Part shown: in pieces, positions 3,549 to 21,444 of the stretch
How the letters are laid out: every line of letters starts with the position of its first letter
Numbering within the stretch: position 1 is the stretch's first letter
Source: a virus
DNA length: 21,444 nucleotides
Virus genome (UHGV): UHGV-1982450
Strand: one strand, 5' to 3'
Notes under the pieces: model-generated
Seen by the model: only the letters and a program-made list of their open reading frames with translations
What the model was told of the DNA's origin: nothing
Databases searched by the model: none
Translations under genes and position numbers: made by a program

Positions 3549-3611
3549 AGAGCCTGCTTCCGTATATATAAATACTAAGTGACTTATTAAATATATACGG
3601 AAGCAGGCTCT
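3549..3611. repeat. 63-bp palindromic hairpin element, copy 1
   Basis: Perfect 21-bp arms AGAGCCTGCTTCCGTATATAT (3549..3569) and ATATATACGGAAGCAGGCTCT (3591..3611). A 26-nt stretch, ACTTATTAAATATATACGGAAGCAGG (3582..3607), is identical to 11545..11570. Confidence 0.9.
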
Positions 3612-3644
3612 GAATACTCCCCAGCCCGGTTTTAAACACCCAGA

Positions 3645-3682
3645 AAACAAATTGGTTAGGCACTGAATTAAACAAGTTGTTT
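3645..3682. promoter_or_regulatory. tandem operator-like palindromes AAACAA-N-TTGTTT upstream of terS
   Basis: 3645..3657 is AAACAAATTGGTT (one mismatch) and 3670..3682 is AAACAAGTTGTTT (perfect). Both are followed by TAGG. The same motif occurs at 9514..9526 and 12443..12455. Confidence 0.55.
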
Positions 3683-3722
3683 AGGAGCGCAAGGATGCGC
3701 TCTGAGTGTTTTAGAGGGATCT

Positions 3723-4364: not shown

Positions 4365-4366
4365 CT

Positions 4367-5623: not shown

Positions 5624-5638
5624 GTAAGTACTTACCTA
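5621..5638. promoter_or_regulatory. perfect 18-bp palindrome TAGGTAAGTACTTACCTA at the terL/portal junction
   Basis: It starts at the terL stop codon TAG and ends 18 nt before the portal ATG. Related copies lie at 11657..11674 (2 mismatches) and 2165..2182 (4 mismatches). Confidence 0.6.
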
Positions 5639-5656
5639 AGTGGAAAGGAAAATCAA

Positions 5657-7231: not shown

Positions 7232-7253
7232 TAAGTAACGAAAAGGTATTTCT

Positions 7254-8021
7254 ATGAATCTGTGGCAAATGCTTATGGCCCGTCGTGGCCTGATGGATGT
7301 AGCCGAAGCGCATGAGCGCGGCGGCGCTGGTGGCGGTGCTCCTGCTGGAGACAATGAGCAGAGCATTCAAGACCCAGGCAAACAGGGCGAGCAAAAAGAG
7401 CAACCGAAGGGTGACGACGATGAGTATGCCGGTATGACTCAGGAAGAGTTGCTGGCAGAACTGCGTAAGTCTAAGAAAGCCGGTGCTGATCTGTTGAAAG
7501 AGAACATGAAGCGCAAGGAGAAAGAGCGCACATTGGCCGATCAGCTGGCTCAGTACGGTGATATTGACCCGACGCGTGCTCGTCAGCTTCTCGAAGCTGA
7601 ACAAGCCGCAGAAACCGCACGTCGGGAGGCGGAGCAGGCTGAACTGGAACGTCGTGGTGAGTTCGATGCTGTGAAAAAGCAGATGATCGAAGCACACCAG
7701 ACTGAACTGGCACAGCGCGACGAACGCTACTCCGCTCTGGAGAGCGAGAACGCCGCACTGAAGGCTCAACTGGTCGAAATGACTGTTGGTGTTTCCTTCA
7801 GCAGTTCTGCTTTCCTGCGTGACAAAGTTCTGATGACTCCGGCTATTGGCCTTGCACAAATTGCTGACGTTATGCCTCAAGTTTCTGCCGCAATGGATAA
7901 AGCGCAAGGCAATATCTCCAGTGGAGATACGGTACGCATCATCTTTGGCGTAGCTACCATTCTTGTGGCAGCATTCATTGCCTGGTCCCAGGTTCGCAAG
8001 CACCAGAAAGGATTAGTGTAA
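7254..8021 (+). CDS. coiled-coil, E/Q/A-rich protein with a C-terminal transmembrane helix
   Basis: Long heptad-like acidic segment (EQAAETARREAEQAELERRGE...) and a C-terminal hydrophobic stretch IIFGVATILVAAFIAWSQV. It occupies the scaffold position after the portal, but a TM anchor is atypical for a scaffold. Confidence 0.5.
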   Translation: MNLWQMLMARRGLMDVAEAHERGGAGGGAPAGDNEQSIQDPGKQGEQKEQPKGDDDEYAGMTQEELLAELRKSKKAGADLLKENMKRKEKERTLADQLAQYGDIDPTRARQLLEAEQAAETARREAEQAELERRGEFDAVKKQMIEAHQTELAQRDERYSALESENAALKAQLVEMTVGVSFSSSAFLRDKVLMTPAIGLAQIADVMPQVSAAMDKAQGNISSGDTVRIIFGVATILVAAFIAWSQVRKHQKGLV

Positions 8022-8023
8022 GT

Positions 8024-8275
8024 ATGTTCGACGGCCTGTTGTTCAAAATGAAATCCGCTTTGTTCACTCTGGCCGCCGTCATTCTAGTCCTTGTCGGCGC
8101 ATACTCCTATGGCGGGTATATGGCCAGACGCAGTATGGAAGAGAAAGAACGGCGGGAAGATAACAAGCGTCTTCAAAGCACAGTGGAAGTGGTGAATGAG
8201 ACGAACAGTGAAATACGTCAGAAAGATGCTTCTGCCATTCATCGTGAGCTGCATGATAAGTGGGTGCGTAATTAA
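8024..8275 (+). CDS. i-spanin-like (Rz-like) protein
   Basis: N-terminal TM ALFTLAAVILVLVGAYSYGGY followed by a charged helical region. The next ORF, a lipoprotein, overlaps its 3' end in another frame. Confidence 0.5.
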   Translation: MFDGLLFKMKSALFTLAAVILVLVGAYSYGGYMARRSMEEKERREDNKRLQSTVEVVNETNSEIRQKDASAIHRELHDKWVRN

Positions 8276-8411
8276 GCCACAGACCACCAGCGTGTTGTTC
8301 TGCGATGGCGCTGAACCTATTTATATCAGCAATGACGATGTAATGACCGAAGAAACCGAACGCCAAATCCTTTTTCACAATACGATGGGAGAGAGAGTTT
8401 GCGGTTGGTGA
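8196..8411 (+). CDS. o-spanin-like (Rz1-like) small lipoprotein, overlapping the i-spanin gene
   Basis: Signal peptide MRRTVKYVRKMLLPFIVSCMISGC with lipobox I-S-G-C. The mature part is about 47 aa. GGAAG lies about 8 nt upstream of the ATG. The ORF overlaps 8024..8275 by 80 nt, the classic overlapped spanin layout. Confidence 0.55.
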   Translation: MRRTVKYVRKMLLPFIVSCMISGCVIKPQTTSVLFCDGAEPIYISNDDVMTEETERQILFHNTMGERVCGW

Positions 8412-8421
8412 TGTCGAAGTT

Positions 8422-8437
8422 CCCCTCAAATGAGGGG
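8422..8437. terminator. weak bidirectional hairpin between convergent genes
   Basis: CCCCTC-AAAT-GAGGGG lies between the o-spanin stop (8411) and the GNAT toxin stop (8444). It lacks a strong U-run. Confidence 0.3.
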
Positions 8438-8443
8438 GACACA

Positions 8444-8965
8444 TTATTCTTCGAACAATTTTTCGATAGATTTTGTTGGATAGAACAAAGAACGATCGTT
8501 GTTACCAACCAGCTGGATAAAGCCCAAACTTTTATAAAACGCCCTGGCTTTATCGTTCAACGCCTCAACGAAAAGCCCATGAATGCCTACCGCAAGAGAT
8601 GCATTGTACACAACACGCATTGCGTGAGTTACAAGCATTGAGCCAAGCCCCTGACCTTGAAGAGATTTGTCCAAAGCCAGTCTGCCTAAAGTGATACTTG
8701 GGACATGCCGATAAGGCACTTTCTTTTGCTGACTCTTTGAAGGTAAGGTTTCTTTCTCAAAGCAGCTGCCTGACAAAGTGTAATAACCTAATACCTTTGG
8801 TATTTCTTCTTTAGTGCAAAGCACATAAGCGCGAAGAATTTTTCCTTCATGCTGTCTTTTTAAGTGGTTGGTCAAAAATGCGTTTAGCGACTCTTCGCCG
8901 CAATCAAAACCGTTTAGATCATAATCTTTCTCTCCAGAGAAAATCTCGATCGTCGTATTGCTCAC
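8444..8965 (-). CDS. GNAT-family acetyltransferase toxin (TacT/AtaT/KacT-like type II TA toxin)
   Basis: The N-terminus FDCGEESLNAFL, the GYYTL segment and acetyl-CoA motif A QGQGLGSMLV match the toxin family that pairs with DUF1778 antitoxins. The antitoxin gene sits directly upstream. Confidence 0.85.
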   Translation of the reverse strand: MSNTTIEIFSGEKDYDLNGFDCGEESLNAFLTNHLKRQHEGKILRAYVLCTKEEIPKVLGYYTLSGSCFEKETLPSKSQQKKVPYRHVPSITLGRLALDKSLQGQGLGSMLVTHAMRVVYNASLAVGIHGLFVEALNDKARAFYKSLGFIQLVGNNDRSLFYPTKSIEKLFEE

Positions 8966-8972
8966 GAGTAAA

Positions 8973-9242
8973 TTACTCCATGCTTTTCAGACGATTGGCA
9001 GCTCGTTTCAGCTTGTCGTTCGGTGCCGGAGGATTGCTTATAGCATCCATAACCAGATTCCAGGACTCTTCACTTAGAACCAGTCTACGGTGTTGCTCTA
9101 TCACCTTCACGGCACGTTCGGATGCACTGCTAACCATGAACTGGGTAATGCTCTGGTTAGACATTGCGGCAGCTTCCTCGATGATGCTTTTATCGTCATC
9201 GGTTAATCTCAAATCGATGCGCTGCTTTTTCAGTGCGGACAT
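8973..9242 (-). CDS. DUF1778 (RHH) antitoxin, TacA/AtaR/KacA-like
   Basis: RIDLRLTDDDKSIIEEAAAMSNQSITQFMVSSASERA is the typical DUF1778 N-terminal RHH pattern. The gene lies 7 nt upstream of the toxin gene and has an SD GGGGG. Confidence 0.85.
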   Translation of the reverse strand: MSALKKQRIDLRLTDDDKSIIEEAAAMSNQSITQFMVSSASERAVKVIEQHRRLVLSEESWNLVMDAISNPPAPNDKLKRAANRLKSME

Positions 9243-9513
9243 GTGTACCCCCTGATGGCCGGTGATGTAGGAAGGCCATCATTGCTCTCTATTTAAACTG
9301 AGTTTTCGACTCAAAGGTTATTTAACTGGGCTATAGCCCATTGCGTATGTGTCATCAAATTGTGTACGGCAATTTACCGTACTCGTAATATAGAGGTGAT
9401 TGTCACTTTTTTCAACAGACAAATGAAAACAGTTACTAGCAATAGGCAATAACAACCTACTAAATAACCTTTACACCGCAGCCGTAGGCATTTAGGCTAT
9501 ATCGCATATAAGA

Positions 9514-9526
9514 AAACAAGTTGTTT
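9514..9526. promoter_or_regulatory. operator-like palindrome AAACAAGTTGTTT over a putative parA promoter
   Basis: Perfect palindrome 36 nt upstream of the parA ATG. A candidate sigma70 promoter, TAGGCA (9485..9490) - N16 - TATAAG (9507..9512), ends 2 nt before it. Confidence 0.5.
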
Positions 9527-9561
9527 CATACGACAATAATTCACGCAAAGGAAACTCACCA

Positions 9562-10227
9562 ATGACCAAGATCATTGTGGTTGGCGGCACAAAAGGCGGC
9601 CCAGGCAAATCTACCGTTGCCCAGCAAATTGCGGTATGTCTCAAAGTTAAAAAGAAAAAGAAGGTTCACGTCACCGATATCGATATCCAGCGCACCACGA
9701 CCAGCTGGTGTGAAGACCGTCGCCAGAACGAAGATCTTGAACTGATCCCGTTCGCTTATGTGCAGGACGACATCGTCAAACATCTTAAATCGCTTCAGGG
9801 GCGAACTGATTATGTAGTGGTAGATGCTGGTGGCTTTGACTCCGAAATTCAGCGTCTGGCGATGCTTATGGCTGATGTAATCATCATCCCGCTGCGCCCT
9901 AAACGTCGTGATTTGAAATCTCTGCGTGATATCGACCCGATTATCGACAACGTTCGCAATGTGAACGAGAAAGTTAAGATCCGCGCGGTAATAAACCAGT
10001 GTCCGTCATTGCCTTCCCAGGTATCACGTATTCTGGCCGCGAAGGAAATTGTCGAAACTTTCGGCATCGAGGCTGCGCCGGTTAACCTGTACAACCGTAA
10101 CGTTTATGACGATGCGGAAGAGGCAGGTCGTTCTATCTTTGAAATGACTGGCGCTGAACGCGATAAGAAGGCAGAAGCCGAGTTCGAAGAGTTTGTAGAT
10201 TACATCTTGAGTCTGGAGGAAGAATAA
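9562..10227 (+). CDS. parA: ParA-family partition ATPase (small, type Ib-like)
   Basis: Deviant Walker A GGTKGGPGKST at the N-terminus. The protein is 221 aa and is followed by a 1-nt overlapping small RHH gene. Confidence 0.9.
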   Translation: MTKIIVVGGTKGGPGKSTVAQQIAVCLKVKKKKKVHVTDIDIQRTTTSWCEDRRQNEDLELIPFAYVQDDIVKHLKSLQGRTDYVVVDAGGFDSEIQRLAMLMADVIIIPLRPKRRDLKSLRDIDPIIDNVRNVNEKVKIRAVINQCPSLPSQVSRILAAKEIVETFGIEAAPVNLYNRNVYDDAEEAGRSIFEMTGAERDKKAEAEFEEFVDYILSLEEE

Positions 10228-10586
10228 TGTCCATGAGAATGGGAGACCTTGCAAAGCGCAATGAGCCTAAAGAACCGGCCAAAAGCAGCACTCCACTGCG
10301 CCAGCCAGTCAGACCGCAGGGGCGTCCGACTCGTGGCAAAGAGAAAATTAAAAGTCGCACAATGTCACTGGAAGACGAATACTTCGAACTGCTGGAGATG
10401 ATGAAGTTCATCCCTCGTTTCGAGAAGTTCACCCGTTCTGACGTGATTCGCGCTGCTATTTTCCATCTGGCAGAGAAGTCACCGCAGGAAATCGAGGACA
10501 TCGTGAAACTTAACGAGGCGATCACAGCTGCCGATGTCACGATGCGTACCGATGAAATCAAACGAGAGTTGATGAAGAAAGGTTAA
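10227..10586 (+). CDS. putative centromere-binding RHH protein (ParG-like partner of ParA)
   Basis: ATG overlaps the parA stop (TAATG). The N-terminal tail is basic and disordered. RTMSLEDEYFELLEMM...TRSDVIRAAIFHLAE fits a strand-helix-helix RHH fold. Confidence 0.55.
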   Translation: MSMRMGDLAKRNEPKEPAKSSTPLRQPVRPQGRPTRGKEKIKSRTMSLEDEYFELLEMMKFIPRFEKFTRSDVIRAAIFHLAEKSPQEIEDIVKLNEAITAADVTMRTDEIKRELMKKG

Positions 10587-10589
10587 AAA

Positions 10590-10624
10590 TTATGCATTGG
10601 CGCAATGTACGCGCCAATGCATAA
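10590..10624. terminator. bidirectional intrinsic terminator between convergent parG-like and GIY-YIG genes
   Basis: Perfect 14-bp stem TTATGCATTGGCGC / GCGCCAATGCATAA with loop AATGTAC. It is flanked by an A-run on the left. Confidence 0.65.
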
Positions 10625-10638
10625 GTACAGTGTCAGCT

Positions 10639-11406
10639 TTATGCCGCGCTAACACTATGTTCATTCCTAACCACCCCAACCTTCACAAAAGGGCTGCCGT
10701 AGCTTGGTGGCTTCTTGATTAATTTGCCTACATACAGTTTTCTAATATGCTCATCGGCTATTCTGCCAACAAATTCATAACGTTTTGTGTCGGGGCCAAG
10801 AGCTATATCCCTTGTAAAGTACTGCTGAGAACCGGCTTTGACCCAGCATTCAATCTGATAAACTTCCATTATCAGGCCCCCATATGTAGCGTAGGCATAT
10901 TTGAGATTCTCGTCTCTTGGAACCTTTGCCCATACGCCACGCGTAGCTTCATATAATGCCAGAGCGGACATTCCTGACTTGTAGGTGCTGTTTAGCAGGA
11001 AGGCAAGACCGGCGTGCTCAGGAGCAATTTCAGTTTCCTCTTGCAGCACTAAGTGATGGTAGGCGTCCAGTGATATTCTGCCCATCATGGAACCACTTCC
11101 TCGTACCTTATTCGTAAGCTCTCCGACCCCCATAAGGTCGATGCATGTCGCCTCAACAAGTTTGGCTGTGGTTTCATCCATACCATGACGAAGAATATCT
11201 ATGCCTAATTTTTTATTAGCCAAAAGTTCTTTGATCCGCATGGATTTGGGAGAGTCATCGGGATACTTGATGTGATCGAGACAACGAGTCGATTTGCCTT
11301 TTCCTATGTAAAACGGTCTTTTCATCTTGTCTTCTGTATCATAGAGACAGTAAACATAGTATTTAGCCTTATCCAATGATCTCGCGTATACCGATAAATC
11401 GTCCAT
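10639..11406 (-). CDS. GIY-YIG nuclease-domain protein with an uncharacterised C-terminal domain
   Basis: The N-terminus YYVYCLYDTEDKMKRPFYIGKGKSTRCLDH shows the GIY...YIG...R pattern. About 150 aa of C-terminal domain is not recognised. It is the only minus-strand gene in a plus-strand neighbourhood. Confidence 0.75.
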   Translation of the reverse strand: MDDLSVYARSLDKAKYYVYCLYDTEDKMKRPFYIGKGKSTRCLDHIKYPDDSPKSMRIKELLANKKLGIDILRHGMDETTAKLVEATCIDLMGVGELTNKVRGSGSMMGRISLDAYHHLVLQEETEIAPEHAGLAFLLNSTYKSGMSALALYEATRGVWAKVPRDENLKYAYATYGGLIMEVYQIECWVKAGSQQYFTRDIALGPDTKRYEFVGRIADEHIRKLYVGKLIKKPPSYGSPFVKVGVVRNEHSVSAA

Positions 11407-11517
11407 TATTGCATCTCTTAGCTACTGACTAATGCGTTCTATTTTACACATAAGTTTTTAATCAATTTTACAGGCTCAAAGTGTAGAGCTTCTGGGTGTC
11501 TAAGACGACAAGTTATG

Positions 11518-11570
11518 CCTGTTTCTGTATATAAATAATAAGTAACTTATTAAATATATACGGAAGCAGG
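11518..11570. repeat. 53-bp near-palindromic hairpin element, copy 2
   Basis: Arms are 11518..11543 and 11545..11570 (22 of 26 positions pair, 2 more as G:T). The right arm is identical to 3582..3607. It is immediately followed by the perfect palindrome GTCTTTTAAAAGAC (11570..11583). Confidence 0.9.
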
Positions 11571-11656
11571 TCTTTTAAAAGACACCCACCAGAACAACTC
11601 CCTTCCGTTTCCACTTCCCAAAAATATCTCCAGTCGCTATGATTCGCTCACTTAGA

Positions 11657-11674
11657 TAAGTAAGTACATACCTA
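11657..11674. promoter_or_regulatory. TAAGTAAGTACATACCTA, related to the 5621..5638 palindrome
   Basis: 16 of 18 positions are identical to TAGGTAAGTACTTACCTA. It lies 14 nt upstream of the GTG start at 11689. Confidence 0.5.
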
Positions 11675-11688
11675 TTAAAGGGAATCAT

Positions 11689-12414
11689 GTGAGCCAGATC
11701 TTCTTCAACACTATCGACAATGACCAGTACGATTTCATGACAGAGTGGAACACCGCAGTCATGGATAAGTGGGTAGCGGAGAACATTGGCCTGTCACGTT
11801 GCAAGGACGAGGCGGAACTGTTCGAAACCAAATGGTTTGACTATCGCGATATGCACCCGCTCATGGCCACATGCCTTTTCACTGAGGCATACAAGCGCCA
11901 GTACTCATACATCATGCTGTCGCATGGTCGTGAACACTATGAGACGGCTCCATTCACAACCGGTCTGAAGCGTGTGCCATATCAGGAGTTGTCGACTGCC
12001 AATAAAACGTCTCTATGGAAAGCACGCCAGTTTGCTGACCGCTATTGCTGCTCATACGACTACTTTATCTCCACCGTTCTTTCCGCAGCTGCACGACGGC
12101 TGTGGGACAAATTACCGCGCCCCCAGCATCTCTGGCAGCCCGAGTTGATCGATATATTCGAAGAGAAGTTAGCCAAACGCGCTGTAACCCGTCTGGATGA
12201 CTCTCTGGTGAGTTTTAAGCATCTTGGAGACATGCAGCGTGACCCGATTCAGGAACGCTATTTTGAGTGGATTCTGGAGCGTCTGCGTGGCATTACCCGA
12301 GATAAACGCATCCGTATCATCTTCTCCGCTGTCTGGTTGATGGAAATCGTGCCTGAGCGTGTGATTTACGCGCACTTCCCGGAAGAACTGGAAGAAGCAC
12401 GGCGATTCTGTTGA
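11689..12414 (+). CDS. hypothetical protein (241 aa), first gene of the replication block
   Basis: GTG start with AAAGGGAA upstream. Same strand as, and directly upstream of, the DnaB-like helicase gene. No motif recognised, so any loader or initiator role is only positional speculation. Confidence 0.45.
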   Translation: MSQIFFNTIDNDQYDFMTEWNTAVMDKWVAENIGLSRCKDEAELFETKWFDYRDMHPLMATCLFTEAYKRQYSYIMLSHGREHYETAPFTTGLKRVPYQELSTANKTSLWKARQFADRYCCSYDYFISTVLSAAARRLWDKLPRPQHLWQPELIDIFEEKLAKRAVTRLDDSLVSFKHLGDMQRDPIQERYFEWILERLRGITRDKRIRIIFSAVWLMEIVPERVIYAHFPEELEEARRFC

Positions 12415-12442
12415 TCCCCTATCTGGCTTTTTTAGTATTAGA

Positions 12443-12455
12443 AAACAAATTGTTT
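12443..12455. promoter_or_regulatory. operator-like palindrome AAACAAATTGTTT upstream of the DnaB-like gene
   Basis: Perfect palindrome 19 nt before the ATG at 12475. A candidate promoter, TTGATC (12411..12416) - N16 - TAGTAT (12433..12438), lies just upstream. Confidence 0.5.
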
Positions 12456-12474
12456 AAGCACCAAAGGAAAGCAC

Positions 12475-13815
12475 ATGACCGAACTTTGCCACACAGGACG
12501 AGGGTTGTCTGAAGAGTTCGACGACGACTTCCAGAATAGACTCGCTGCCTACTTCTGTCGCGACCATGAGTTTCTGACTCGCGCAGGCGATCTGGTTGCC
12601 CCAAACCAGTTCTCTAATGCGGCTAACTCCATTCTGGTTAACATGGTGTCGGGCTACTACAGAATGTATAAGAGCGCACCATCATCATCAGCCATCCTCG
12701 ACATGCTCAAACGCGCCAAACGCGATAAGACGATCCGCGAAGAGCTGTTCCCTGACGTTGTTGAGGCGTTTAAGCGCATTCTCGCTGAGAAGCTGTCAGA
12801 TACGGCGTACATGGTCGACCAGGTCGCGACATTTGCTAAAAGCGTAGCGTTCGACGATGCGCTAATTAAAGCGGCTGAGATGAAAGAGAAGGGCGATTTC
12901 CAGGGCGCGATGGCAATCATGGCTAAGGTCCAGCAAATTGGCTCTAACGAAGCGACCGGCATTTACGATTACTTCGCAGAATCAGCGGAGCGTTACAAGG
13001 CCCGTGAGTACGAAGCGTCCGACGATTACGTGCCAAACAGCATCACTACCGGCCTCCCGCTGCTCGACAAACTGCTTTACCAGAAAGGCTGGGCAAAGCG
13101 TGAAATGGTGCTGTTTATGGGCTTCGCTAAGTCTGGTAAATCGACGGCGATGGGGGAGTTTTCCATCAACGCCACGCTTGCCGGTTACAACGTCCTGTAT
13201 CTGTCGCTGGAAGTTCACACCTCCATTCTGTCAGATCGCTTTGACGCCCGTCTGTCTGAGACCGAAATGTCCAGGCTGGTGGAACGTCGCGATGACGTCC
13301 ATCGCAAACTGGCGGAGCTGGGTGCGACGAAAGGCGTGGGAAGTTTGTGGATTGTTGAACGACCGTCCGGAAGCATGTCGCCCGCAGATCTGGATCGTAT
13401 GTTGGGCAGCATGAAAGCCAACGGCATGGTCCCCGATATGGTTGTGGTCGACTACGCTGACCTGATGCGTGCCAGCTACGACCTCCGCGACGACCGCGCT
13501 AACATTCGCAGCATCTACACTGACCTGCGTGCGCTGTACGACAAACACAACGTTGCCGGCATCACGGCATCGCAGACTAACAGAGAAGGTGGCGCTTCTG
13601 AGGTGGCTACAATGATGCACGCAGCGGACAACATCGAGAAGGTGCGTATCGCTGACCTCGTTATCACTATCAACAAAACGGAAGAAGAAGAAGCGAAAGG
13701 CGAAGCGCGTCTTTACTTCGCTGGTTCACGTAACCAGAAAGGCGGCGTAAGCATCCGCGTTAAGCAGAACCTCGAACAAATGCGATTCATCGAACGCATT
13801 ATGGACGTCCTCTAA
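12475..13815 (+). CDS. DnaB-family replicative helicase
   Basis: Walker A GFAKSGKST, Walker B VVVDYADLM and an SQTNREG motif characteristic of the DnaB/RecA-like C-terminal domain. 446 aa. Confidence 0.85.
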   Translation: MTELCHTGRGLSEEFDDDFQNRLAAYFCRDHEFLTRAGDLVAPNQFSNAANSILVNMVSGYYRMYKSAPSSSAILDMLKRAKRDKTIREELFPDVVEAFKRILAEKLSDTAYMVDQVATFAKSVAFDDALIKAAEMKEKGDFQGAMAIMAKVQQIGSNEATGIYDYFAESAERYKAREYEASDDYVPNSITTGLPLLDKLLYQKGWAKREMVLFMGFAKSGKSTAMGEFSINATLAGYNVLYLSLEVHTSILSDRFDARLSETEMSRLVERRDDVHRKLAELGATKGVGSLWIVERPSGSMSPADLDRMLGSMKANGMVPDMVVVDYADLMRASYDLRDDRANIRSIYTDLRALYDKHNVAGITASQTNREGGASEVATMMHAADNIEKVRIADLVITINKTEEEEAKGEARLYFAGSRNQKGGVSIRVKQNLEQMRFIERIMDVL

Positions 13816-13821
13816 AAAAGA

Positions 13822-13848
13822 AGGCGTGGGGAAACACTCTCCACGCCT
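13822..13848 (-). terminator. hairpin with a U-run only in the minus orientation
   Basis: Stem AGGCGTGG / CCACGCCT. On the minus strand it is followed by TTCTTTTTTA; on the plus strand by TGTCTCC. It may block antisense read-through, and its function is uncertain. Confidence 0.3.
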
Positions 13849-13875
13849 GTCTCCAGAAGAGAACAAATTTCTCTT

Positions 13876-15087
13876 TTGCCAAAACCACAAAAGAAAAAAC
13901 ACATGAGCCTTTATGGTATTCAAATACCGAGGCTTATCAAGATATTACCTGCAAAAAATAGGGGTAAGAACGTGAGCGACTTGAAAGAATTACTGACCGA
14001 GCTGGATTTTGAGCAATGGCTCGATATGGAAGGGATCATCTACCGTCGTGGTGGAGTCAGTACTCGCGGACGAGAGGTCAACATTAAAGAGTGTCCGGTA
14101 TGCGGCAGCTCAAACTGGAAGGTTTATTTCAACCTGACCAGTGGTGTCGGCAAATGCTTTGCAGGCGATCATCCCGAAGAGATTCAGTTCAACAAGCTGG
14201 TCTTCCTAAAGCATTACAGCGGCAAATCTCGTCGCGATTTTGAAGAGTACGTCCAGAACGCGCTGATCTCACAAGGATGGGCACCGAAGAAGGAAGAGAT
14301 CGTACTGGCCAGCAAGGTTGAACTGGAAGGACCGGTAGCTCTCCCGCGCCATTACGAACTCCCCATTGACGGTCGTCTTCCTGATTATCTGGTGGAGCGC
14401 CAGATTTCCCCGGAGCTGGCCAAATACTTTGATCTGCGTTACTGCGTCGAAGGCAAGCACGCATACGTCGATCCGTACACAGACCAGGTCAAAGGACAGG
14501 TATTCGATATGCGAATACTGATACCGGTTTACGATCTGGATGGCGTGATGAAGACCTTCCAGGGTCGTGACATTACCGGTGCAGCAGAACGCCGGTATCT
14601 GTTCCCCATGCAGCTGCCAGCATCGGGTAAATTTCTCTACAACGGCCACAATGCAGTCGGCAAACAGACTGTAGTTGTCTGTGAGGGGGCGTTCGATGTT
14701 ATGGGGGTTAAACGAGCTATTTTTGATGAAGAAACATTACGCGATTACGTGGAACCGATAGGAACGTTCGGGATGCATCTATCTGGTAACACCACTCAGG
14801 ATGCAGAAGATCAGTTGGGCGCGTTCCTGACGCTCAAGGCGCGTGGATTACGTAATGTGATTATGATGTGGGATAGTGAAAAGCAAGCTATACGCAACAC
14901 GATGGCCGCAGCCAGGCGACTGACTAGTATCGGTCTTAATGTCAAAGTAGCGTGTTTGGGCGAGGAAGGACTCGACCCCGGCGATGCGACACCGGGGCAG
15001 ATTATCAAAGCCTACTATTGCGCAAAACCTTATTCACGACAGCTTGAACTTTTAAGCAAGGTAAAAGGCATAGCTGCATTAGTTTGA
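13876..15087 (+). CDS. DNA primase (Zn-finger + Toprim, DnaG/T7 gp4-like)
   Basis: Zn-finger CPVCGSSNWKVYFNLTSGVGKCFAGDH, Toprim glutamate VVVCEGAFDVMG, and an acidic MMWDSE motif. The track start at 13876 is TTG; the true start may be the ATG at 13903 or the GTG at 13972. Confidence 0.8.
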   Translation: MPKPQKKKHMSLYGIQIPRLIKILPAKNRGKNVSDLKELLTELDFEQWLDMEGIIYRRGGVSTRGREVNIKECPVCGSSNWKVYFNLTSGVGKCFAGDHPEEIQFNKLVFLKHYSGKSRRDFEEYVQNALISQGWAPKKEEIVLASKVELEGPVALPRHYELPIDGRLPDYLVERQISPELAKYFDLRYCVEGKHAYVDPYTDQVKGQVFDMRILIPVYDLDGVMKTFQGRDITGAAERRYLFPMQLPASGKFLYNGHNAVGKQTVVVCEGAFDVMGVKRAIFDEETLRDYVEPIGTFGMHLSGNTTQDAEDQLGAFLTLKARGLRNVIMMWDSEKQAIRNTMAAARRLTSIGLNVKVACLGEEGLDPGDATPGQIIKAYYCAKPYSRQLELLSKVKGIAALV

Positions 15088-15174
15088 ACCAGTATTATCA
15101 ACGGCTCGGTAGTGTCTAAATTATCCGTGGCGATTCAGTTCTTTTCGTGGGTATGTCTACTTATAGATATTTGT

Positions 15175-15202
15175 TTGTGTTGTGTTCTTGGTCGAATACA
15201 AT
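15175..15202 (+). promoter_or_regulatory. candidate sigma70 promoter of the island operon
   Basis: TTGTGT (15175..15180) - N16 - TACAAT (15197..15202), about 30 to 50 nt upstream of the possible DprA-like starts. Pattern match only. Confidence 0.25.
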
Positions 15203-15229
15203 TAATCTGCATGGTTAATGGACTAAAAA

Positions 15230-16216
15230 TTGTCGTTCTTTGGGGGAGAAGTGAACATTGTAGATGCTCTTGTTCTCAAGAAGTTAATGAGCGTTGGTGA
15301 TGAAACTGTTCTGTCAATCTTAAAGTTTTCAGCGTACAGCGGAGTGTCAACACTCGAAGAACTGGTAGTTAACTCCTCCAATCTGAAAATCTCAAATGGT
15401 AAATCTCGAGCAACTCTCGAAAGTTTCTTCGACGCTGCGAACTTCCAGGCTCTCAGGGACGAAGTAAAAACAGAGATTGATTCGTTCAAAAATAAAGGAG
15501 TTGAGATTGTTATCTTCGGTTCGAAAAACTATCCAATTTCGTTATATGATCTCCCGAAACCTCCACCCTTTCTTTACTGTAAAGGCAATCTAAATCTCTT
15601 AGAGAATAGGCTTTCATTAGCTGTTGTAGGAACTCGTGAAAACACCCCCAAGGGTGAAACCCTAACGATTAAAACTATTCAAAAGTTTGCGACTTATGGC
15701 TTCACGATAGTCAGTGGACTTGCACTGGGTATCGATACAATTGCTCATCGCGCGGCATTAGATGCCAAAACACCAACGATTTCTGTTCTTGTCGATGTGG
15801 AGTCTATTTCTCCCGCAAGTAATCGGGAACTCGCTAAGGAAATATTGGACGAGGGCGGACTTCTAGTTGCAGAGAATGCACCAGGAACCAAAGCAATACC
15901 TGCGTTCTTTGCTAAGCGAGACAGGATACAAGCAGGTTTATCTACTGCCGTCTTTGCTATTGAAACTTCGATAGATGGTGGGACGATGCACGCAGTCAAA
16001 TCTGCTATCTCTATGATGCGTCCTGTCTTCGTTCCTGACGTACATAAAGCTAAGTATCCAGATCTTACTATCAAGGCAATTTCAGGAACTCAACAGCTAG
16101 TTAACGAAGGGAGGGCGATACCATACACGAGCGAATCTTATGAAGATATTCGTCTTCAATTAGAAGATATCGCGAGTTCATTTGGGTCGTTGAAAGCAAA
16201 AGGTGGCCTGCTGTGA
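15230..16216 (+). CDS. DprA/Smf-family (Rossmann/SLOG-like) DNA-processing protein homologue
   Basis: The canonical DprA core runs YPISLYDLPKPPPFLYCKGN...LAVVGTRENTPKG...IVSGLALGIDTIAHRAAL...FFAKRDRIQAGLS...ETSIDGGTMHAV. The N-terminal part resembles the DprA SAM/HhH-like region. The track start is TTG (15230); GTG at 15251, after GGGGGAG, is an alternative. Confidence 0.85.
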   Translation: MSFFGGEVNIVDALVLKKLMSVGDETVLSILKFSAYSGVSTLEELVVNSSNLKISNGKSRATLESFFDAANFQALRDEVKTEIDSFKNKGVEIVIFGSKNYPISLYDLPKPPPFLYCKGNLNLLENRLSLAVVGTRENTPKGETLTIKTIQKFATYGFTIVSGLALGIDTIAHRAALDAKTPTISVLVDVESISPASNRELAKEILDEGGLLVAENAPGTKAIPAFFAKRDRIQAGLSTAVFAIETSIDGGTMHAVKSAISMMRPVFVPDVHKAKYPDLTIKAISGTQQLVNEGRAIPYTSESYEDIRLQLEDIASSFGSLKAKGGLL

Positions 16217-19200
16217 TAAAGGTCATCGTCCTCGATCTTGATGACACGCTTATTGATACATCAAGCCTCGAACCACTTCGGTTAGCTGGCCGATGGAGAG
16301 ACATACCCAGGTACTTTAATGGTTGTGTCATCAATCAGGACGTTGTCGGCCTTGTTACAACGGCTCGGTCGGTTGGAATCAAGGTTGCTATCTTCTCGAA
16401 TGCGCCTTCGAACTACGTTCAGGGGCTACTCAAACACTTCAGTATCACTGTTGATTATGTAGTAGCCTACCATGATGTAACGCAGCATAAGCCGAGCCCT
16501 GAGGGCGTTACTCGTATTCTCGAGTACTTCGGTGTTAGCGCCGACGAGTCAATTTATTTAGGAGATAGTAACCTAGATCGAGACGCTGCTTCCAATGCAG
16601 GAGTTGAGTTTTTCTCAGTAGATTGGGGTTCTGCCTCGGAGATCGATTCGTCACATAAGGGAATAAGCGGTCTCTCCGAGCTTATTGGAAAAAACTCGAC
16701 GCGGAGCTCCGCAAGAACTGGACGTTCTGAGTTAATACAATCTGGGAATAAACTTCATCTGGGATTCTATTTAGATGGTATCAAACAGGAAGTTTGGTCT
16801 TTCAAGGATAACAAGAATACTTCTGTTCGCCGCTGGGTTAACAAGACTGTTGAGCTAGCTTCTTCATTCCCAGCCATAGATATAGTTGTTCGAGCGTTAG
16901 GTCACGCTGAGCTTAGGGCTGAAGATGGCGATAAAGCATTAGATACCTTGGGCAAATCGCTGGCTGTTGCTTTAGGGGCTTCTTACCAACCTAAGATATT
17001 AGAGAAAGATCACGTATTAGATAAATCGACTAATTGCACTGCAGCACAAAGACTCCACCAGGTCAGAGGTGCCTATAAAGCCGATTTTGATTCAATAGAA
17101 GCTAATTCAAATCCGACATTTCTGATCATTGACGACGTATTAACTTCGGGGGCTACAACTGATGAGATAACACGCTGTCTATCTCAAGCTTTTCCGAATT
17201 CAAGTATTTACATTTTTACGTTGGTTAAAACTCTCTATAGATTGGAGCTATGCACTGACAGCCAAGAACAACAACACAATAACCAACTGTTTTCAGATTT
17301 GTACAACCCAATCATCGACTCGCTGGCGGACGAAAGTGAACTATCTAGACATGTCAGGTCGAAGTCTAGTAGCAGGCTTGTAAGCAAGAAGTTTTCTGCT
17401 AACTACGCGAGAACCAACCATAACTTCATTTTCCACAATCTTCTCCAGTATTCTATCTCGTCTGAAGCGGCGTCTGGACAGCTATTTGCAGCAATTCAAG
17501 TTCTTAAGAATATGCTTCAGAGAGGGAAGCCAACAATAGCCTCGCGGAAGCTGAGGAAGGCATTTGGCATTGAACTGGATCAGAACGTTCTTAATACACC
17601 AGCTCAGGCTCTTGTGTCAGATAAGCCGGTTTTTTGGAATAGATTGATTCGAGGCCACAAACAGTCAGGAAACTACCCAGCGAAAAGGTTTTTTGATGAG
17701 CTGATACCGAAGTATTTCGGTAAGTACATTTTTGTAAAACAACTAATGCTCCCTGAAGTCCAGATTTACGATATGACTCAGGTCTACGTTGAACAATTCC
17801 AGAACCGACAGGTAGATTTTTACATTCCTCAAGTTGGTTTAATTATTGAGATAGACGGTCAGCAGCACCAAAATTCTCAGCATTTAGATGAAATGAGGGA
17901 TGCGTTTACCGAAAGCCTGGGACTGAAGACTGTTCGATTCACTGTTCAAGAACTGGCATCTGAGAACCAGTCATTTATCAGTAAGATAAATTCGATTATT
18001 TCTCACATTCAGATCGTTGATGGTCTAGAGCGAAATGGTGTCCTAACGCCTCCTAATGGTATTTCTTTATTGAATTACCAAGAGGCTTACGAAAATGGAG
18101 TCGATGTTACTGACTCGCGATTGAGGCTGACCTCGGCGTTGCGTTTCCAGATACTGTTATTAGAGCTTCTTGAACGCGGTCAGATCAGACTAGGGGAGTT
18201 GAAAAAACTATTCATAGTCAATCGTGATGGAACTGATTTTGCTGAAGCGGCACTGGACGACCTGAACGATTTGTTATCGAATATCTTTCGTCTCATCGGC
18301 ATTGAAGAAAAGCGAATTGAGGTTGCGCTGATCGAATCAGATGAGCTTCCGAGCGAACGGTCTGGTGAAAATATATTCATCGACTTCAGCTTACTGGAGC
18401 GTTATGACGATTCCTTTCAAGTTAACCAAGACGTCATATATTCACGTACGGATTACTTCGATTTCTATCGAAACTTCGAAGATTCTGATGCTGTTTCAAT
18501 AGAAACCAGTCAATTGATTGACTATGACTTTTTTGAGCTTTCATGTAGTAACCCCATTACCTACAAGCTAGATCTTAGCCCAGGCAGCGAGCAGAGAGAG
18601 TCGCTGAGATACTTCCTCAGCAACCTGTTTCTACCATACCTAGAGGATGTAGATTTCAGGGAAGGGCAGGTTGGTATCATAGGATCTGCACTTTCGAAAA
18701 ACGGCACAATAGGATTGCTGCCTACAGGTTCGGGTAAGTCGATTTGTTACCAGCTGTCTGCGGTCCTGCAACCAGCCGTTAGCTTTGTCGTGTGCCCGAT
18801 AAAAAGTTTGATGTATGACCAGAAAGCAGATTTGGATAGCATCGGCTTCACTCGAAGCAATTTTATTACAAGTGATTTGAAGGCAGGAGAGAAGGCCAAA
18901 GTTCAGAGAGATTTCGGACGTGGTAAGTACTTCTTCGTTTTTATATCGCCTGAGCGATTCCAAACCCATGCGTTTAGAAAAGAGATGTTGGCTATCGGAC
19001 TAGATCTCTCATTTGCCTACGCGGTGATCGATGAAGCTCACTGTTTGTCTGAGTGGGGACATGATTTCAGGACTTCTTATCTGAACCTGGCAAATACAAT
19101 CGAACGGTTTGCTCCCAGTGCGAGTTATATAGGTCTAACGGCAACAGCATCAGTTAACGTCCTAAAGGATATTCAAACAGAGTTTGATATCCCAGATGAT

Positions 19201-20889
19201 TTTGTCCGTACCCCCATGGACTTCACTCGCGAGGAACTATCATTCCACGTCATTGACGATAAAGGCCGTAAAGGTGATGCAGTCGTCGAGCTTGTTTCTG
19301 AAATGGAGGGTAAATGGAATTCAGATGGGGAAGACGGCAATAAGGCGGGGATCATATTCACTTCTACCGTCAACGGAGCTAAGGGGTGTTATAGCTTAGC
19401 GGGCCGAATATCAACACTCTTGAAGATGGATGTTAGATATTTTTCGGGGTCGGCTCCGAAAATGGGTGGATTGCAGGGAGAGGCTTTCGATAGATATAAG
19501 CGCCAAGTTCAAGACGATTTTAAAGAAAATAAATACCGCCTACTTACTGCCACTAAGGCATTCGGAATGGGCGTGAATAAGGGAAATATTGCCTATACGG
19601 TTCACTTCGGAATACCTGGGTCGATGGAGGCCTTGTATCAGGAAGCTGGCAGGGCAGGGCGAGATAAAAAACTATTCAAGGAAGTACCCGCAGATTGCTA
19701 TGTGCTTCTCACAAAAGAGCCCAATTCAGCTATTCTCGACAAGATTTGGGACGCTAGCACGAACGTCAAAGATCTGAAGGAGTACGTGAAGTCATTGAGT
19801 CGCGATAGCGACCTGAACACAAATCTATTCCTGATGACAAACGGCTTGGGCACAATCAATGATGAGTTCAAGTTGATGGCAAATGTATACGAATTTTTTA
19901 AGTACAATCAGGAACACAACACGGTGACCATTACTGCCAGGCAGTTTGGTACGGAAAAGTTTAAATTGGAAAAGGCTATCTACCGCCTTTCTCAATTAGG
20001 TATTGTCTCTGACTGGGTAATCGAAGACTTTTTTAATGGAACGCTCTCTGTCGAGTTCCAGTGCCTATCGGAAGAAGGCCTGGAAAAGAAAATTGAGCAT
20101 ACCGTCAGAAAGTATGATCCTGAGTTTAAGCTCGCTGATGTGTTCAGTAGTGATAACCAGTACTACAAAATTCTCTGCGACAAGCTGAGAAAAGGGTCTA
20201 TCGATAAATCGCAATTTATCTTTCTTGTTCTTTTACTTTGGTCCTATGACCATTTTGTCTACAACCGCCGCCAGTCACAGAAGAACGTTTATGAACACTG
20301 TAGTTTATTTGCTGAAGGCAGGATGGATGGTAAAGAATTTAAGGAGAAGTTAGAGGGTTATTTCAGACACGACAAGTCGAGCCAACTTTTGCTCAATATG
20401 GCTGAGAATTCTGTGTCGGTGAAGTTATGGCCATCAGTTTTTTTTGAAACTGATGAAGAAGAGGGCTCGGAACATTTAGTAAGCAGCGAGAAGATGACGA
20501 TCCTACGAGGTCAGATTTCTCGATTCCTAGAGTCATACAAAGATAATGCATTCTTGAACTACTTGAGTGGTGTGCTGCGACTAGCTTCCGATGAGTTTGA
20601 TGATGCAGATGGAGAGCGAAGAATGGCATCGTCATTTGATCGGTTGATCAGTGATAATAGGGATGAAGCACTAGAGCTGGTCCGAAAAACTATGCAGTTA
20701 AAACCAATATTTTCTGAAAATGCGCGAAGTCGCTTTGCTCGTTTGGTCCATGAGAAATTTGAAGATTTGGATTTTCTTGGGGAAGTAAATGAAGAGCTAG
20801 GAGATCCGTTCTCCTATCACACTTTGTTAGCTCCACTGGCAATTAGACTTGAAAAACTTACCAGCCTATACAAGGGGATTAATTGGTGA
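16213..20889 (+). CDS. 1558-aa multidomain protein: HAD phosphatase + type I PRTase (ComF-like) + DUF559/Vsr-like PD-(D/E)xK nuclease + RecQ-family helicase core + unknown C-terminal region
   Basis: HAD motifs: DLDDT (D8/D10, nt 16234..16248), FSNAP, K93, GDSNLDRDAASNAG (nt 16561..). PRPP loop: FLIIDDVLTSGATT (nt 17119..17160). Nuclease motif: DFYIPQVGLIIEIDGQQH...VRFTVQEL (nt 17815..17955). RecQ motifs: FREGQ (18655), PTGSGKSICYQ (18721), VIDEAHCLSEWGHDFR (19027..), LTATAS, ATKAFGMGVNK, YQEAGRAGRD (..19665). The GTG start overlaps the DprA-like stop (GTGA, 16213..16216), with AAGGTGG 6 nt upstream. Confidence 0.9.
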   Translation: MIKVIVLDLDDTLIDTSSLEPLRLAGRWRDIPRYFNGCVINQDVVGLVTTARSVGIKVAIFSNAPSNYVQGLLKHFSITVDYVVAYHDVTQHKPSPEGVTRILEYFGVSADESIYLGDSNLDRDAASNAGVEFFSVDWGSASEIDSSHKGISGLSELIGKNSTRSSARTGRSELIQSGNKLHLGFYLDGIKQEVWSFKDNKNTSVRRWVNKTVELASSFPAIDIVVRALGHAELRAEDGDKALDTLGKSLAVALGASYQPKILEKDHVLDKSTNCTAAQRLHQVRGAYKADFDSIEANSNPTFLIIDDVLTSGATTDEITRCLSQAFPNSSIYIFTLVKTLYRLELCTDSQEQQHNNQLFSDLYNPIIDSLADESELSRHVRSKSSSRLVSKKFSANYARTNHNFIFHNLLQYSISSEAASGQLFAAIQVLKNMLQRGKPTIASRKLRKAFGIELDQNVLNTPAQALVSDKPVFWNRLIRGHKQSGNYPAKRFFDELIPKYFGKYIFVKQLMLPEVQIYDMTQVYVEQFQNRQVDFYIPQVGLIIEIDGQQHQNSQHLDEMRDAFTESLGLKTVRFTVQELASENQSFISKINSIISHIQIVDGLERNGVLTPPNGISLLNYQEAYENGVDVTDSRLRLTSALRFQILLLELLERGQIRLGELKKLFIVNRDGTDFAEAALDDLNDLLSNIFRLIGIEEKRIEVALIESDELPSERSGENIFIDFSLLERYDDSFQVNQDVIYSRTDYFDFYRNFEDSDAVSIETSQLIDYDFFELSCSNPITYKLDLSPGSEQRESLRYFLSNLFLPYLEDVDFREGQVGIIGSALSKNGTIGLLPTGSGKSICYQLSAVLQPAVSFVVCPIKSLMYDQKADLDSIGFTRSNFITSDLKAGEKAKVQRDFGRGKYFFVFISPERFQTHAFRKEMLAIGLDLSFAYAVIDEAHCLSEWGHDFRTSYLNLANTIERFAPSASYIGLTATASVNVLKDIQTEFDIPDDFVRTPMDFTREELSFHVIDDKGRKGDAVVELVSEMEGKWNSDGEDGNKAGIIFTSTVNGAKGCYSLAGRISTLLKMDVRYFSGSAPKMGGLQGEAFDRYKRQVQDDFKENKYRLLTATKAFGMGVNKGNIAYTVHFGIPGSMEALYQEAGRAGRDKKLFKEVPADCYVLLTKEPNSAILDKIWDASTNVKDLKEYVKSLSRDSDLNTNLFLMTNGLGTINDEFKLMANVYEFFKYNQEHNTVTITARQFGTEKFKLEKAIYRLSQLGIVSDWVIEDFFNGTLSVEFQCLSEEGLEKKIEHTVRKYDPEFKLADVFSSDNQYYKILCDKLRKGSIDKSQFIFLVLLLWSYDHFVYNRRQSQKNVYEHCSLFAEGRMDGKEFKEKLEGYFRHDKSSQLLLNMAENSVSVKLWPSVFFETDEEEGSEHLVSSEKMTILRGQISRFLESYKDNAFLNYLSGVLRLASDEFDDADGERRMASSFDRLISDNRDEALELVRKTMQLKPIFSENARSRFARLVHEKFEDLDFLGEVNEELGDPFSYHTLLAPLAIRLEKLTSLYKGINW

Positions 20890-21374
20890 ATGACATACAG
20901 AAACTACACCGGGTAATCGATTCACTCGAAGAGCAATCGACGCAAGTGGCACAGTTTAATGGCCTGTTGAGCGCCGTCAGCGATGCAAGAACTGAGATAG
21001 AGGCTGCGAAATCAACGCTCGTAAATCTAGCTTATGAACACGCTGAATTGTTTACGAAGAACTCGAATAAATTTGAAGAGTTTGACGGCCGCCTTATGTC
21101 ACTAAATGATCTTCTAGGCCAGATCAAAGATGAACAGTTGAAACTAAGGCGTGAGGTTGCAGCCTTGAAGTTTGTAACACCAGAGCAGTTTGAACAAGGC
21201 TGCACAGCAATTGATAGCCGCATTGCTAAACAATTAGCGGAATTGAAAAGCAAGTTAGAGGCGGCGGCGGAGTCTCAGCAAAGATCGATAAGCGGGCTAC
21301 GAACCATAGTTGTTTTAGGTATCTTGGTGTTGGCTGGAGGTGTCGGATTCTTGGCTATGAATATTTTTCTTTAA
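20883..21374 (+). CDS. coiled-coil protein with a C-terminal transmembrane anchor
   Basis: About 140 aa of heptad-like helical sequence, then TIVVLGILVLAGGVGFLAMNIFL at the extreme C-terminus. The likely start is GTG 20886, which overlaps the upstream stop (GTGA 20886..20889), with AAGGGGA 7 nt upstream. The track start TTG 20883 is in the same frame. Confidence 0.6.
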   Translation: MVNDIQKLHRVIDSLEEQSTQVAQFNGLLSAVSDARTEIEAAKSTLVNLAYEHAELFTKNSNKFEEFDGRLMSLNDLLGQIKDEQLKLRREVAALKFVTPEQFEQGCTAIDSRIAKQLAELKSKLEAAAESQQRSISGLRTIVVLGILVLAGGVGFLAMNIFL

Positions 21375-21444
21375 TTTTCAGATTGTCATTCAGTTTTTAG
21401 TTGTAATCAATAAGTTGGAATACAGAGGCTTTTTCCTCTGCTGT

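Follow-up and report, generated by a model that had tools for sequence, protein, structure and literature searches.

Two anti-phage systems, ShosTA and PsyrTA, are the closest described relatives of the locus presented here. Both defend against phages (Millman et al.; Rousset et al.) and both consist of a DprA-like antitoxin and a toxin containing a phosphoribosyltransferase (PRTase). E. coli ShosT has 424 residues, with an N-terminal HAD-like hydrolase of reported pyrophosphatase activity and a C-terminal PRTase that binds phosphoribosyl pyrophosphate (PRPP), and its toxicity needs D331/D332 of the PRPP loop (PMC11961720). ShosA, the antitoxin of ShosT, binds single-stranded DNA (ssDNA) and RecA, not the toxin (PMC11961720, PMC12961424), and is reportedly an intrinsically unstable protein (PMC11961720). 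In RqlH/PsyrT, the genotoxic part is the PRTase at the C-terminus (aa 509-690) of a RecQ-like helicase; both the helicase activity and the DprA-like RqlI hold this PRTase in check, and action on DNA was a speculation of the authors (PMC4670107). Here we describe a three-gene cassette of UHGV virus genome UHGV-1982450, a stretch of 21,444 nucleotides (hereafter the window), whose central gene encodes a 1558-aa protein joining a predicted ShosT-like module to a helicase-nuclease module. We consider it probable that this is a composite toxin-antitoxin (TA) and anti-phage cassette, in which the helicase-nuclease would act as DNA sensor or targeting unit and the ShosT part as effector.

The cassette and the parts of its proteins are given below, with model confidence as predicted local distance difference test values (pLDDT).

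15146..21426, plus strand: mobile three-gene cassette of about 6.3 kb, between primase and hypothetical/ligase genes of an SSU5-like phage-plasmid
15287..16216, plus strand: predicted ShosA-type DprA-like antitoxin gene, 309 aa from the ATG at 15287 (Pfam, PADLOC and PDB matches)
16213..20889, plus strand: 1558-aa fusion protein (ShosT-like module and helicase-nuclease module), intact open reading frame (ORF), GTG start
16213..16692, plus strand: HAD-like phosphatase/pyrophosphatase domain, aa 1-160 (Pfam HAD_2; pLDDT about 85-93)
16720..17247, plus strand: predicted PRTase domain, aa ~170-345 (PADLOC, NCBIfam, Pfam in homologues, structure)
17248..17376, plus strand: fusion linker, aa 346-388 (low conservation, partly low pLDDT)
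17377..17676, plus strand: N-terminal domain of the helicase module, aa 389-488 (conserved; pLDDT 78-97)
17677..17967, plus strand: predicted DUF559/Vsr-like endonuclease domain, aa 489-585 (Pfam, invariant residues)
17968..18630, plus strand: alpha/beta domain, aa 586-806 (conserved; pLDDT mostly >85)
18649..19710, plus strand: RecQ-family superfamily 2 (SF2) helicase core, aa 813-1166 (Pfam, NCBIfam)
19726..20058, plus strand: helical hairpin and probable winged-helix element, aa 1172-1282, where RecQ has its Zn/RQC region
20071..20886, plus strand: all-helical C-terminal domain, aa 1287-1558 (pLDDT mostly 77-93)
20886..21374, plus strand: gene 3, encoding a 162-aa coiled-coil protein that has a C-terminal transmembrane helix, aa 140-158 (sequence, hydropathy)

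The start of the fusion gene overlaps the stop codon of the upstream gene (GTGA), and its homologues start at the same residue as the window protein (MIK..ILDLD.T). Among 5.8 billion proteins searched, full-length homologues (about 1510-1590 aa, 41-95% identity) make up more than 95 clusters, with members in isolates, including Marinobacterium weihaiense, and in metagenome-assembled genomes (MAGs) assigned to Paracoccaceae and Alcanivoracaceae. Given these clusters of the same length and a 99.9% identical cassette in a finished E. coli plasmid (NZ_CP067400.1), the 1558-aa fusion is real and conserved. An earlier annotation made from the letters alone (the sequence-only reading) had described a single chain joining HAD, PRTase, DUF559 and RecQ-like parts, and both the chain and all the catalytic motifs listed for it were found as described. 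Catalytic residues of the HAD domain, the PRPP loop and DUF559, together with all RecQ motifs, are kept across about 96 aligned full-length homologues. The domain assignments also support, as a prediction, the idea that nucleotide chemistry at the N-terminus is joined to a DNA motor and a nuclease. In the databases the protein is called only 'RecQ family ATP-dependent DNA helicase' (name given by the Prokaryotic Genome Annotation Pipeline, PGAP), which is misleading, and this correction holds even if the cassette is found to be inactive.

Structural modelling identifies residues 1-345 as a probable ShosT-type toxin module, not an ad hoc metabolic pair. The HAD domain is recognised directly (Pfam HAD_2, aa 41-135, 2.8e-17) and has the motif residues D8-L-D10-D-T12, S62, K93 and G117-D118...D122, among which D8, D10, T12, T/S62, K93, D118 and D122 are kept in homologues; the region also matches the NCBIfam models for phosphoglycolate phosphatase and for PpaX pyrophosphatase. 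By sequence, the PRTase appears to be the weakest of the four domain assignments, with no PRTase match in Pfam at E<=0.01 for the single fusion protein. It is recognised by the PADLOC ShosT model (2e-8), by the PRTase region of PADLOC PsyrT (model 593-684 against aa 245-340, 7.5e-5) and by NCBIfam, where GntX/ComF is the best match (1.4e-7). In addition, PF00156 is found at E<=0.1 in 19/19 full-length homologues of the scanned alignment, in which the row of the window protein lacked its N-terminus. Profile support for the domains named by the sequence-only reading is direct for HAD and DUF559, and for the PRTase it comes through PADLOC, NCBIfam, Pfam at the level of homologues, and structure.

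The PRPP loop reads LIIDDVLTSGATT (aa 304-316; written from L304 as L304-IIDDVLTSGATT). Across 15 diverse homologues, its residues D307, D308, V309, T311, G313, A314 and T315 never vary, and the acidic pair D307/D308 is kept in about 96; its equivalence to D331/D332 of ShosT is one of motif position, not of residue-level structural alignment.

Residues 1-480 were modelled with AlphaFold2 from a 15-sequence alignment, and the result is confident over aa 1-345. Compared with the PDB by Foldseek, the model returned three ShosT structures as the top matches (8zvd, 8zvb and 8zvc; E 2-5e-12), with alignments of 379-442 columns spanning both domains. Generic HAD phosphatases came next, at 1e-7 or weaker, and H. 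pylori ComF was also among the matches. Where two nucleotide-metabolism enzymes had been seen at first, the two domains were correctly named but their combination matches a known two-domain toxin architecture.

The module is not confined to this fusion. A profile search of 1.84 billion cluster representatives found it standalone (about 360-500 aa) and fused to HEAT repeats (P0136), an Hsp70-like ATPase (P0139), TPR/Sel1 repeats (P0255), MORN repeats (P0206), another nuclease-helicase (P0195) and a DprA-like region (P0179), the last being a possible toxin-antitoxin fusion. Such a distribution would be typical of a portable effector carried by varied sensor or targeting domains. Fusions of the P0179, P0139, P0136, P0255 and P0206 types were not found described in the literature searched.

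Upstream of the fusion gene lies what sequence comparison predicts to be a ShosA-type DprA-like antitoxin gene, whose longest ORF starts at a TTG at 15230. Its product matches Pfam DNA_processg_A at 1.9e-53 and, in PADLOC, ShosA (1.5e-67) far ahead of PsyrA (1.7e-28). The best solved structures are those of ShosA (8zva/9vzo, 5e-34), with true DprA at 1e-20.

Residues 389-1558 appear from sequence comparison to be a separate module, which also exists alone. Unfused helicase-nuclease proteins of about 1130-1290 aa, lacking HAD and PRTase, are found in other phyla (Bacteroidota, Pseudomonadota, Chloroflexota and Acidobacteriota among the unfused forms), and they start just past the linker, at a FSANY..TNHNF motif near aa 390. 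Residues 346-388 are the least conserved block of the protein (mean 0.35) and the least confidently modelled, and since the unfused relatives begin just after them, we place the fusion junction there. In GTDB species genomes searched with the helicase-module alignment, ordinary RecQ proteins dominate; at least eight informative loci were obtained, with no fused family among the matches listed.

The sequence-only reading had left aa ~345..500 and ~600..810 as unassigned linkers. Only aa 346-388 proved to be a true linker, while aa 389-488 and 586-806 are conserved domains. The first shares the invariants A396, Y398, N404, F405, N433, Q436, R437 and G438 with unfused forms, and the second has the invariants R644, Q646, D683, D724, R730, D733, R745 and Y748. 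A profile of aa 596-812 had no credible match in PDB sequences or Pfam. Between the two domains lies DUF559 (Pfam, aa 533-594, 1.1e-9, 38.5 bits against a cut-off of 20.6), which is present in 35/35 family members, with PvuRts1I-like_N in 28/35. Its residues D535, E546, D548, H552, D559 and R562 are invariant, the first four also in unfused relatives, and a PADLOC model of a type II methyl-directed restriction endonuclease matches the region at 7.5e-9. With a score above the gathering threshold and conserved acidic and His residues, this is a predicted nuclease.

The helicase core carries the RecQ motifs 0 (FREGQ, 815), I (LPTGSGKS, 836), VIDEAHCLSEWGHDFR (938-953) and VI (QEAGRAGRD, 1143), and matches Pfam DEAD (2.3e-17) and Helicase_C (9e-11) over aa 819-1151. 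It passes the NCBIfam RecQ subfamily model TIGR00614 (223.6, cut-off 219.8) and falls below the RecQ equivalog (240, cut-off 640). Residues 25-331 of E. coli RecQ align at 3e-41, and the alignment ends exactly where the Zn-binding subdomain would begin. Beyond that point no RecQ_Zn_bind, RQC or HRDC match was found by Pfam in the 35 family members, and C1162 is the single invariant Cys after motif VI, in agreement with the early observation that no four-cysteine cluster follows GRAGRD.

The approximately 400 aa that follow had likewise been set apart as a non-canonical C-terminus; they fold confidently in the model and have no known sequence match. A probable winged-helix element is modelled within aa 1172-1282, and the helical domain behind it has the conserved motifs W..D.F.YNRRQS.KN.YE.C and RFLESY..N..LN..SG..RL. 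A profile of aa 1160-1558 returned nothing credible in PDB sequences or Pfam, and no family member has a Pfam match there. The best match of the aa 596-812 and 1160-1558 profile searches, a pseudo-deubiquitinase (E 0.002, short stretch), was rejected as spurious. As a whole, the model of aa 385-1558 is of good quality (mean pLDDT 88, predicted template-modelling score 0.84), and places in order the N-terminal domain, the nuclease, the alpha/beta domain, two RecA-like lobes, the hairpin with winged helix and the helical domain.

Gene 3 overlaps the end of the fusion gene (GTGA) and is translationally coupled to it. Its product has a long charged, coiled-coil-like region followed by a hydrophobic helix (hydropathy maximum 2.47, aa 140-158). 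Overlapping or abutting the 3' end, a protein of this design accompanies every relative examined, both fused (loci L001, L004, L085, L086 and L087) and unfused (L002, L005-L012, L091 and L092); the unfused loci come from Balneolaceae, Flavobacterium, Paludibacteraceae, Chitinophaga, a proteobacterial MAG, Dehalococcoidia, Caldilineaceae, Bryobacterales and metagenomes. The C-terminal transmembrane segment is present in 14/16 distinct loci, and also in L004, a near-identical copy of the window cassette. These proteins have in common an N-terminal motif L..L......LE.Q, and an iterated search scores the closer members at 91-178 bits; in most loci they are too diverged for tblastn, and their linkage rests on position and design.

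The modular nature of the operon emerges from a tblastn comparison of four parts against 14 loci (5 fused, 9 unfused). The helicase module is present in 14/14. The DprA-like gene is found in all 5 fused loci and in 0/9 unfused ones within about 8 kb (less at contig ends), so among the compared loci it occurs only with the ShosT module. The order DprA-like gene, fusion gene, small ORF is kept over 43-97% identity. Because the DprA-like gene tracks the ShosT module, and the small ORF follows both forms, the operon is a ShosT/ShosA pair merged with a helicase-nuclease/membrane-protein pair, with ShosT fused to the N-terminus of the helicase protein. The unfused helicase-nuclease and its small coiled-coil protein, in turn, look like a distinct, widespread two-gene module.

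The genomic setting is that of mobile cargo. Positions 1..15062 of the window are a backbone 81-86% identical to Escherichia phages CMS-2020a and Cyrano and Klebsiella phage pJN2-26, with the following features.

559..2118, minus strand: SF2 helicase
4367..5623: terminase large subunit
5657..7231: probable portal
8444..8965, minus strand: GNAT-family acetyltransferase toxin (KacT-like), of a second TA pair
8973..9242, minus strand: DUF1778 antitoxin, adjoining the GNAT toxin
9562..10227: ParA partition gene, next to the GNAT/DUF1778 pair
10639..11406, minus strand: LEM-3-like GIY-YIG nuclease
12475..13815: DnaB-like helicase
13876..15087: Toprim primase

Similarity to phage-plasmids ends at about 15033-15062, and the phage-plasmid Cyrano has the hypothetical and ligase genes, which here stand beyond the cassette, immediately after its primase gene; from this we conclude that the cassette is an insertion. 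Its GC content is 0.41-0.45, compared with 0.50-0.55 in much of the backbone. Copies of region 15146..21426 with 97% identity are found in plasmids of Klebsiella and Raoultella and on three E. coli chromosomes, and the cassette is present in 7/5426 complete E. coli genomes. In E. coli ET846 it is flanked on one side by a type I restriction-modification (R-M) system and on the other by a PD-(D/E)XK nuclease, a restriction endonuclease and MZA, and in a Klebsiella plasmid it adjoins HsdR. A homologue of 45% identity neighbours nSTAND3, BrxR and Zorya, and other homologues lie within conjugative or prophage-like DNA. The neighbours of unfused forms include McrBC, HsdR with large superfamily 1 (SF1) helicases, and AIPR. 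Taken together, a phage-plasmid, conjugative elements and plasmids carry the cassette as cargo, and it also sits in defence islands, a further case of defence cargo at a defined phage-plasmid insertion site.

Several side observations concern these surroundings. A partial IS3-family transposase remnant lies to the right of the cassette in plasmid pXJW9B263-1 (L003 15462..15581, just past the window end), and a short inverted repeat, acagagg...cctctgctgt, is found at the shared right boundary (window ~21421..21444); both may be a trace of cassette acquisition. Genes for the ssDNA-binding protein SSB stand 1-2 genes downstream of the cassette in two distant homologous loci (L085 13480..13980, minus strand; L086 12202..12612, plus strand), a notable placement given that phage mutants escaping ShosTA have been mapped to SSB and the primase-helicase. 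Upstream, an Endonuclease_1 (PF04231) gene is seen in L085 and L001. Locus L091 (474..8935) encodes two SF1-type helicase-like proteins (1170 and 1596 aa; AAA_11/AAA_12, PIF1-like, SACS) located between a type I HsdR gene and the unfused helicase-nuclease gene, with an Hsp70-like gene downstream, and this region may be an uncharacterised defence island. Damaged copies also occur, among them L089 (NZ_CP086388.1) and L090 (NZ_CP055510.1): an IS1 insertion interrupts the giant gene near aa 1110, within the second of the RecA-like lobes, and one Klebsiella plasmid copy comprises the DprA-like gene and only the first ~568 residues (HAD, PRTase, N-terminal domain and part of DUF559). Such natural truncations could serve as ready-made domain-deletion variants.

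For the composite cassette we propose the following scheme. The helicase-nuclease would engage DNA, with foreign DNA, replicating DNA or DNA ends as probable targets, as a sensor or targeting unit that also carries a nuclease, its RecQ-like motor presumably moving 3'-5', and it would gate or localise the PRTase effector. A PRPP-dependent reaction of the PRTase could then lead to DNA-replication damage, halting both phage and host, and the HAD domain may make this reaction irreversible by removing pyrophosphate or a phosphate. The DprA-like protein would hold the toxin in check until infection or element loss; by analogy with ShosA and RqlI, it may counter genotoxicity via ssDNA and RecA-dependent repair and not by binding the toxin. 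The membrane protein encoded by gene 3 might anchor or regulate the complex. What the sequences establish is the identity of the domains, the conserved catalytic residues, the gene linkage, the modular co-occurrence and the mobile or defence-island setting. Toxicity, activity against phages, which of helicase and PRTase controls the other, and what gene 3 does are drawn from analogy with ShosTA and RqlHI.

Several points weigh against this scheme. The cassette and its close homologues are known from sequence alone. The N-terminus is only remotely related to E. coli ShosT, with about 15% identity in the structural alignment, and template-modelling scores against ShosT are low because the inter-domain orientation differs. 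The 15-sequence profile reaches ShosT at 3e-5 in the HAD part only, and a PDB search with the single sequence did not reach it. The HAD domain keeps the full DxD catalytic set and could be a phosphomonoesterase rather than a pyrophosphatase. For ShosT itself, what is established is PRPP binding, not an acceptor substrate or PRTase turnover (PMC11961720). Copies that are truncated or interrupted by IS1 or IS5 persist, which fits a costly gene and also a dispensable one, and a promoter and terminator scan of the cassette gave counts no higher than shuffled sequence.

The alternative that survives best, although we consider it unlikely, is a pure addiction module that stabilises the phage-plasmid or conjugative element and has no anti-phage role. 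The cassette resides on a low-copy phage-plasmid by partition genes and the GNAT/DUF1778 TA pair, its antitoxin and toxin genes overlap, ShosA is reportedly unstable (PMC11961720), and truncated copies retain the DprA-like gene with the ShosT-like part. The same cassette, however, is found in chromosomal defence islands beside R-M, MZA and Zorya systems, ShosTA and PsyrTA were themselves shown to be anti-phage, and a 1200-aa helicase-nuclease with a membrane protein exceeds the needs of killing after plasmid loss. Addiction and defence roles are not exclusive.

Still less probable is a non-toxic DNA-processing machine comparable to ComFA (helicase), ComFC (PRTase-like) and DprA, handling incoming or replicating ssDNA during establishment or recombination. 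Russell and Mulvey drew the same parallel for RqlHI (PMC4670107), and it could be extended to the cassette: the best NCBIfam match of the PRTase is GntX/ComF, H. pylori ComF is among the Foldseek matches, the partner is DprA-like, the carriers are conjugative elements and phage-plasmids, and SSB genes are close by in two loci. The closest characterised relatives are nevertheless ShosT and ShosA and not ComFC and DprA, the helicase is RecQ-like and not ComFA-like, a DUF559 nuclease and defence-island neighbours fit uptake poorly, and the cassette is rare and patchy (the 7/5426 E. coli genomes above).

A housekeeping RecQ repair helicase with nucleotide-salvage domains, the function that the PGAP name and the TIGR00614 score above cut-off would suggest, is hardly credible for a protein that scores 240 against 640 with the RecQ equivalog, lacks the Zn-binding and HRDC domains, and occurs on mobile DNA only, rarely in E. 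coli and always linked to a ShosA-like gene. Finally, an assembly or annotation artefact joining separate genes, a risk that the sequence-only reading had raised and that shorter relatives without the N-terminal 385 residues and the annotation of the gene as two proteins in two plasmids might suggest, can be dismissed, since those split annotations are due to the IS1 insertion, full-length fusions of uniform length make up more than 95 independent clusters (isolates, complete genomes and metagenomes), and a finished plasmid has the cassette at 99.9% identity.

Beyond the composite TA and anti-phage cassette, we tentatively put forward a bolder proposal, which we hold to be rather improbable as a whole: that the PRTase acceptor may be not free purines but DNA itself or a base on unwound ssDNA, phosphoribosylated or otherwise modified where the helicase opens the duplex, and that the unfused helicase-nuclease with its tail-anchored partner may form an undescribed, widely distributed two-gene defence system. 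DNA as acceptor is suggested by the repeated, presumably independent joining of PRTase and RecQ in two opposite orders, the addition of a putative nicking nuclease and a partner linked to DprA and RecA. A natural fusion of ShosT with a translocase and a nuclease is a 'Rosetta-stone' hint that the PRTase works at or on DNA, and it offers a single-chain reagent. ShosTA and PsyrTA are validated anti-phage systems, and the fusion makes the question of their PRTase substrate testable.

Set against canonical RecQ helicases (E. coli RecQ, RECQ1, BLM and RECQL5), the window protein has neither the four-cysteine Zn-binding subdomain nor HRDC, and its core is preceded by about 430 extra residues and followed by about 390 unrelated ones. 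According to sequence profiles, the helicase-nuclease module would belong to a family that PADLOC files under DpdF (PDLC02868), a model that matches aa 471-1471 at 3e-112 and nearly the whole of unfused relatives (P0105, 2.8e-120). Membership of the Dpd 7-deazaguanine system itself was rejected, the NCBIfam DpdF equivalog NF041063 giving 139.4 against a cut-off of 550, and no gene annotated as dpd was present in any neighbourhood examined. Unlike DpdF in the Dpd system, the module has as its constant partner a small coiled-coil protein, usually tail-anchored.

With PsyrTA/RqlHI, the cassette shares a RecQ core and a PRTase in one chain, along with a DprA-like partner. PADLOC PsyrT matches the helicase at 8.1e-61 (aa 813-1153 against model 20-337) and also the PRTase, in swapped order: the PRTase is C-terminal in PsyrT and N-terminal here (aa 170-345), and neither a Pfam scan nor a profile search gave a PRTase signal in the C-terminal 400 aa of the fusion protein. 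PsyrT (about 690 aa) has no HAD, no DUF559 and none of the extra domains of the window protein. Antitoxins of the PsyrA/RqlI type combine a DprA-like/MoCo-binding-like region with a C-terminal helix-turn-helix (HTH). The antitoxin of the window matches ShosA far better than PsyrA, and its gene is upstream, whereas that of RqlHI is downstream.

The resemblance to ShosTA is found in the toxin module, an HAD-like hydrolase followed by a PRTase with an acidic PRPP loop, in the adjacent DprA-like partner, whose best solved relative is ShosA, and in the location on mobile elements or in defence islands. Unlike the two-gene ShosTA with its toxin of about 420 aa, the window has a 1558-aa toxin with a covalently added nuclease-helicase, and a third gene; we also count as a difference that the antitoxin gene is upstream of the toxin gene and overlaps it.

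None of ShosT, the upstream DprA-like antitoxin, the RqlH/PsyrT precedent and the coupled third gene figured in the sequence-only reading, which had called the covalent linkage unusual. A RecQ-like helicase-PRTase chain with a DprA-like partner had in fact already been described, as RqlH/PsyrT (PMC4670107), and what stands of that claim is the present order with HAD and DUF559, which we did not find described. In the literature searched, we found no RecQ-PRTase bearing an N-terminal ShosT-type HAD and PRTase, DUF559, the three extra domains and a tail-anchored partner; it is only sub-architectures that have been characterised. The fusion is a hybrid of two known defence/TA families, and not a new kind of enzyme.

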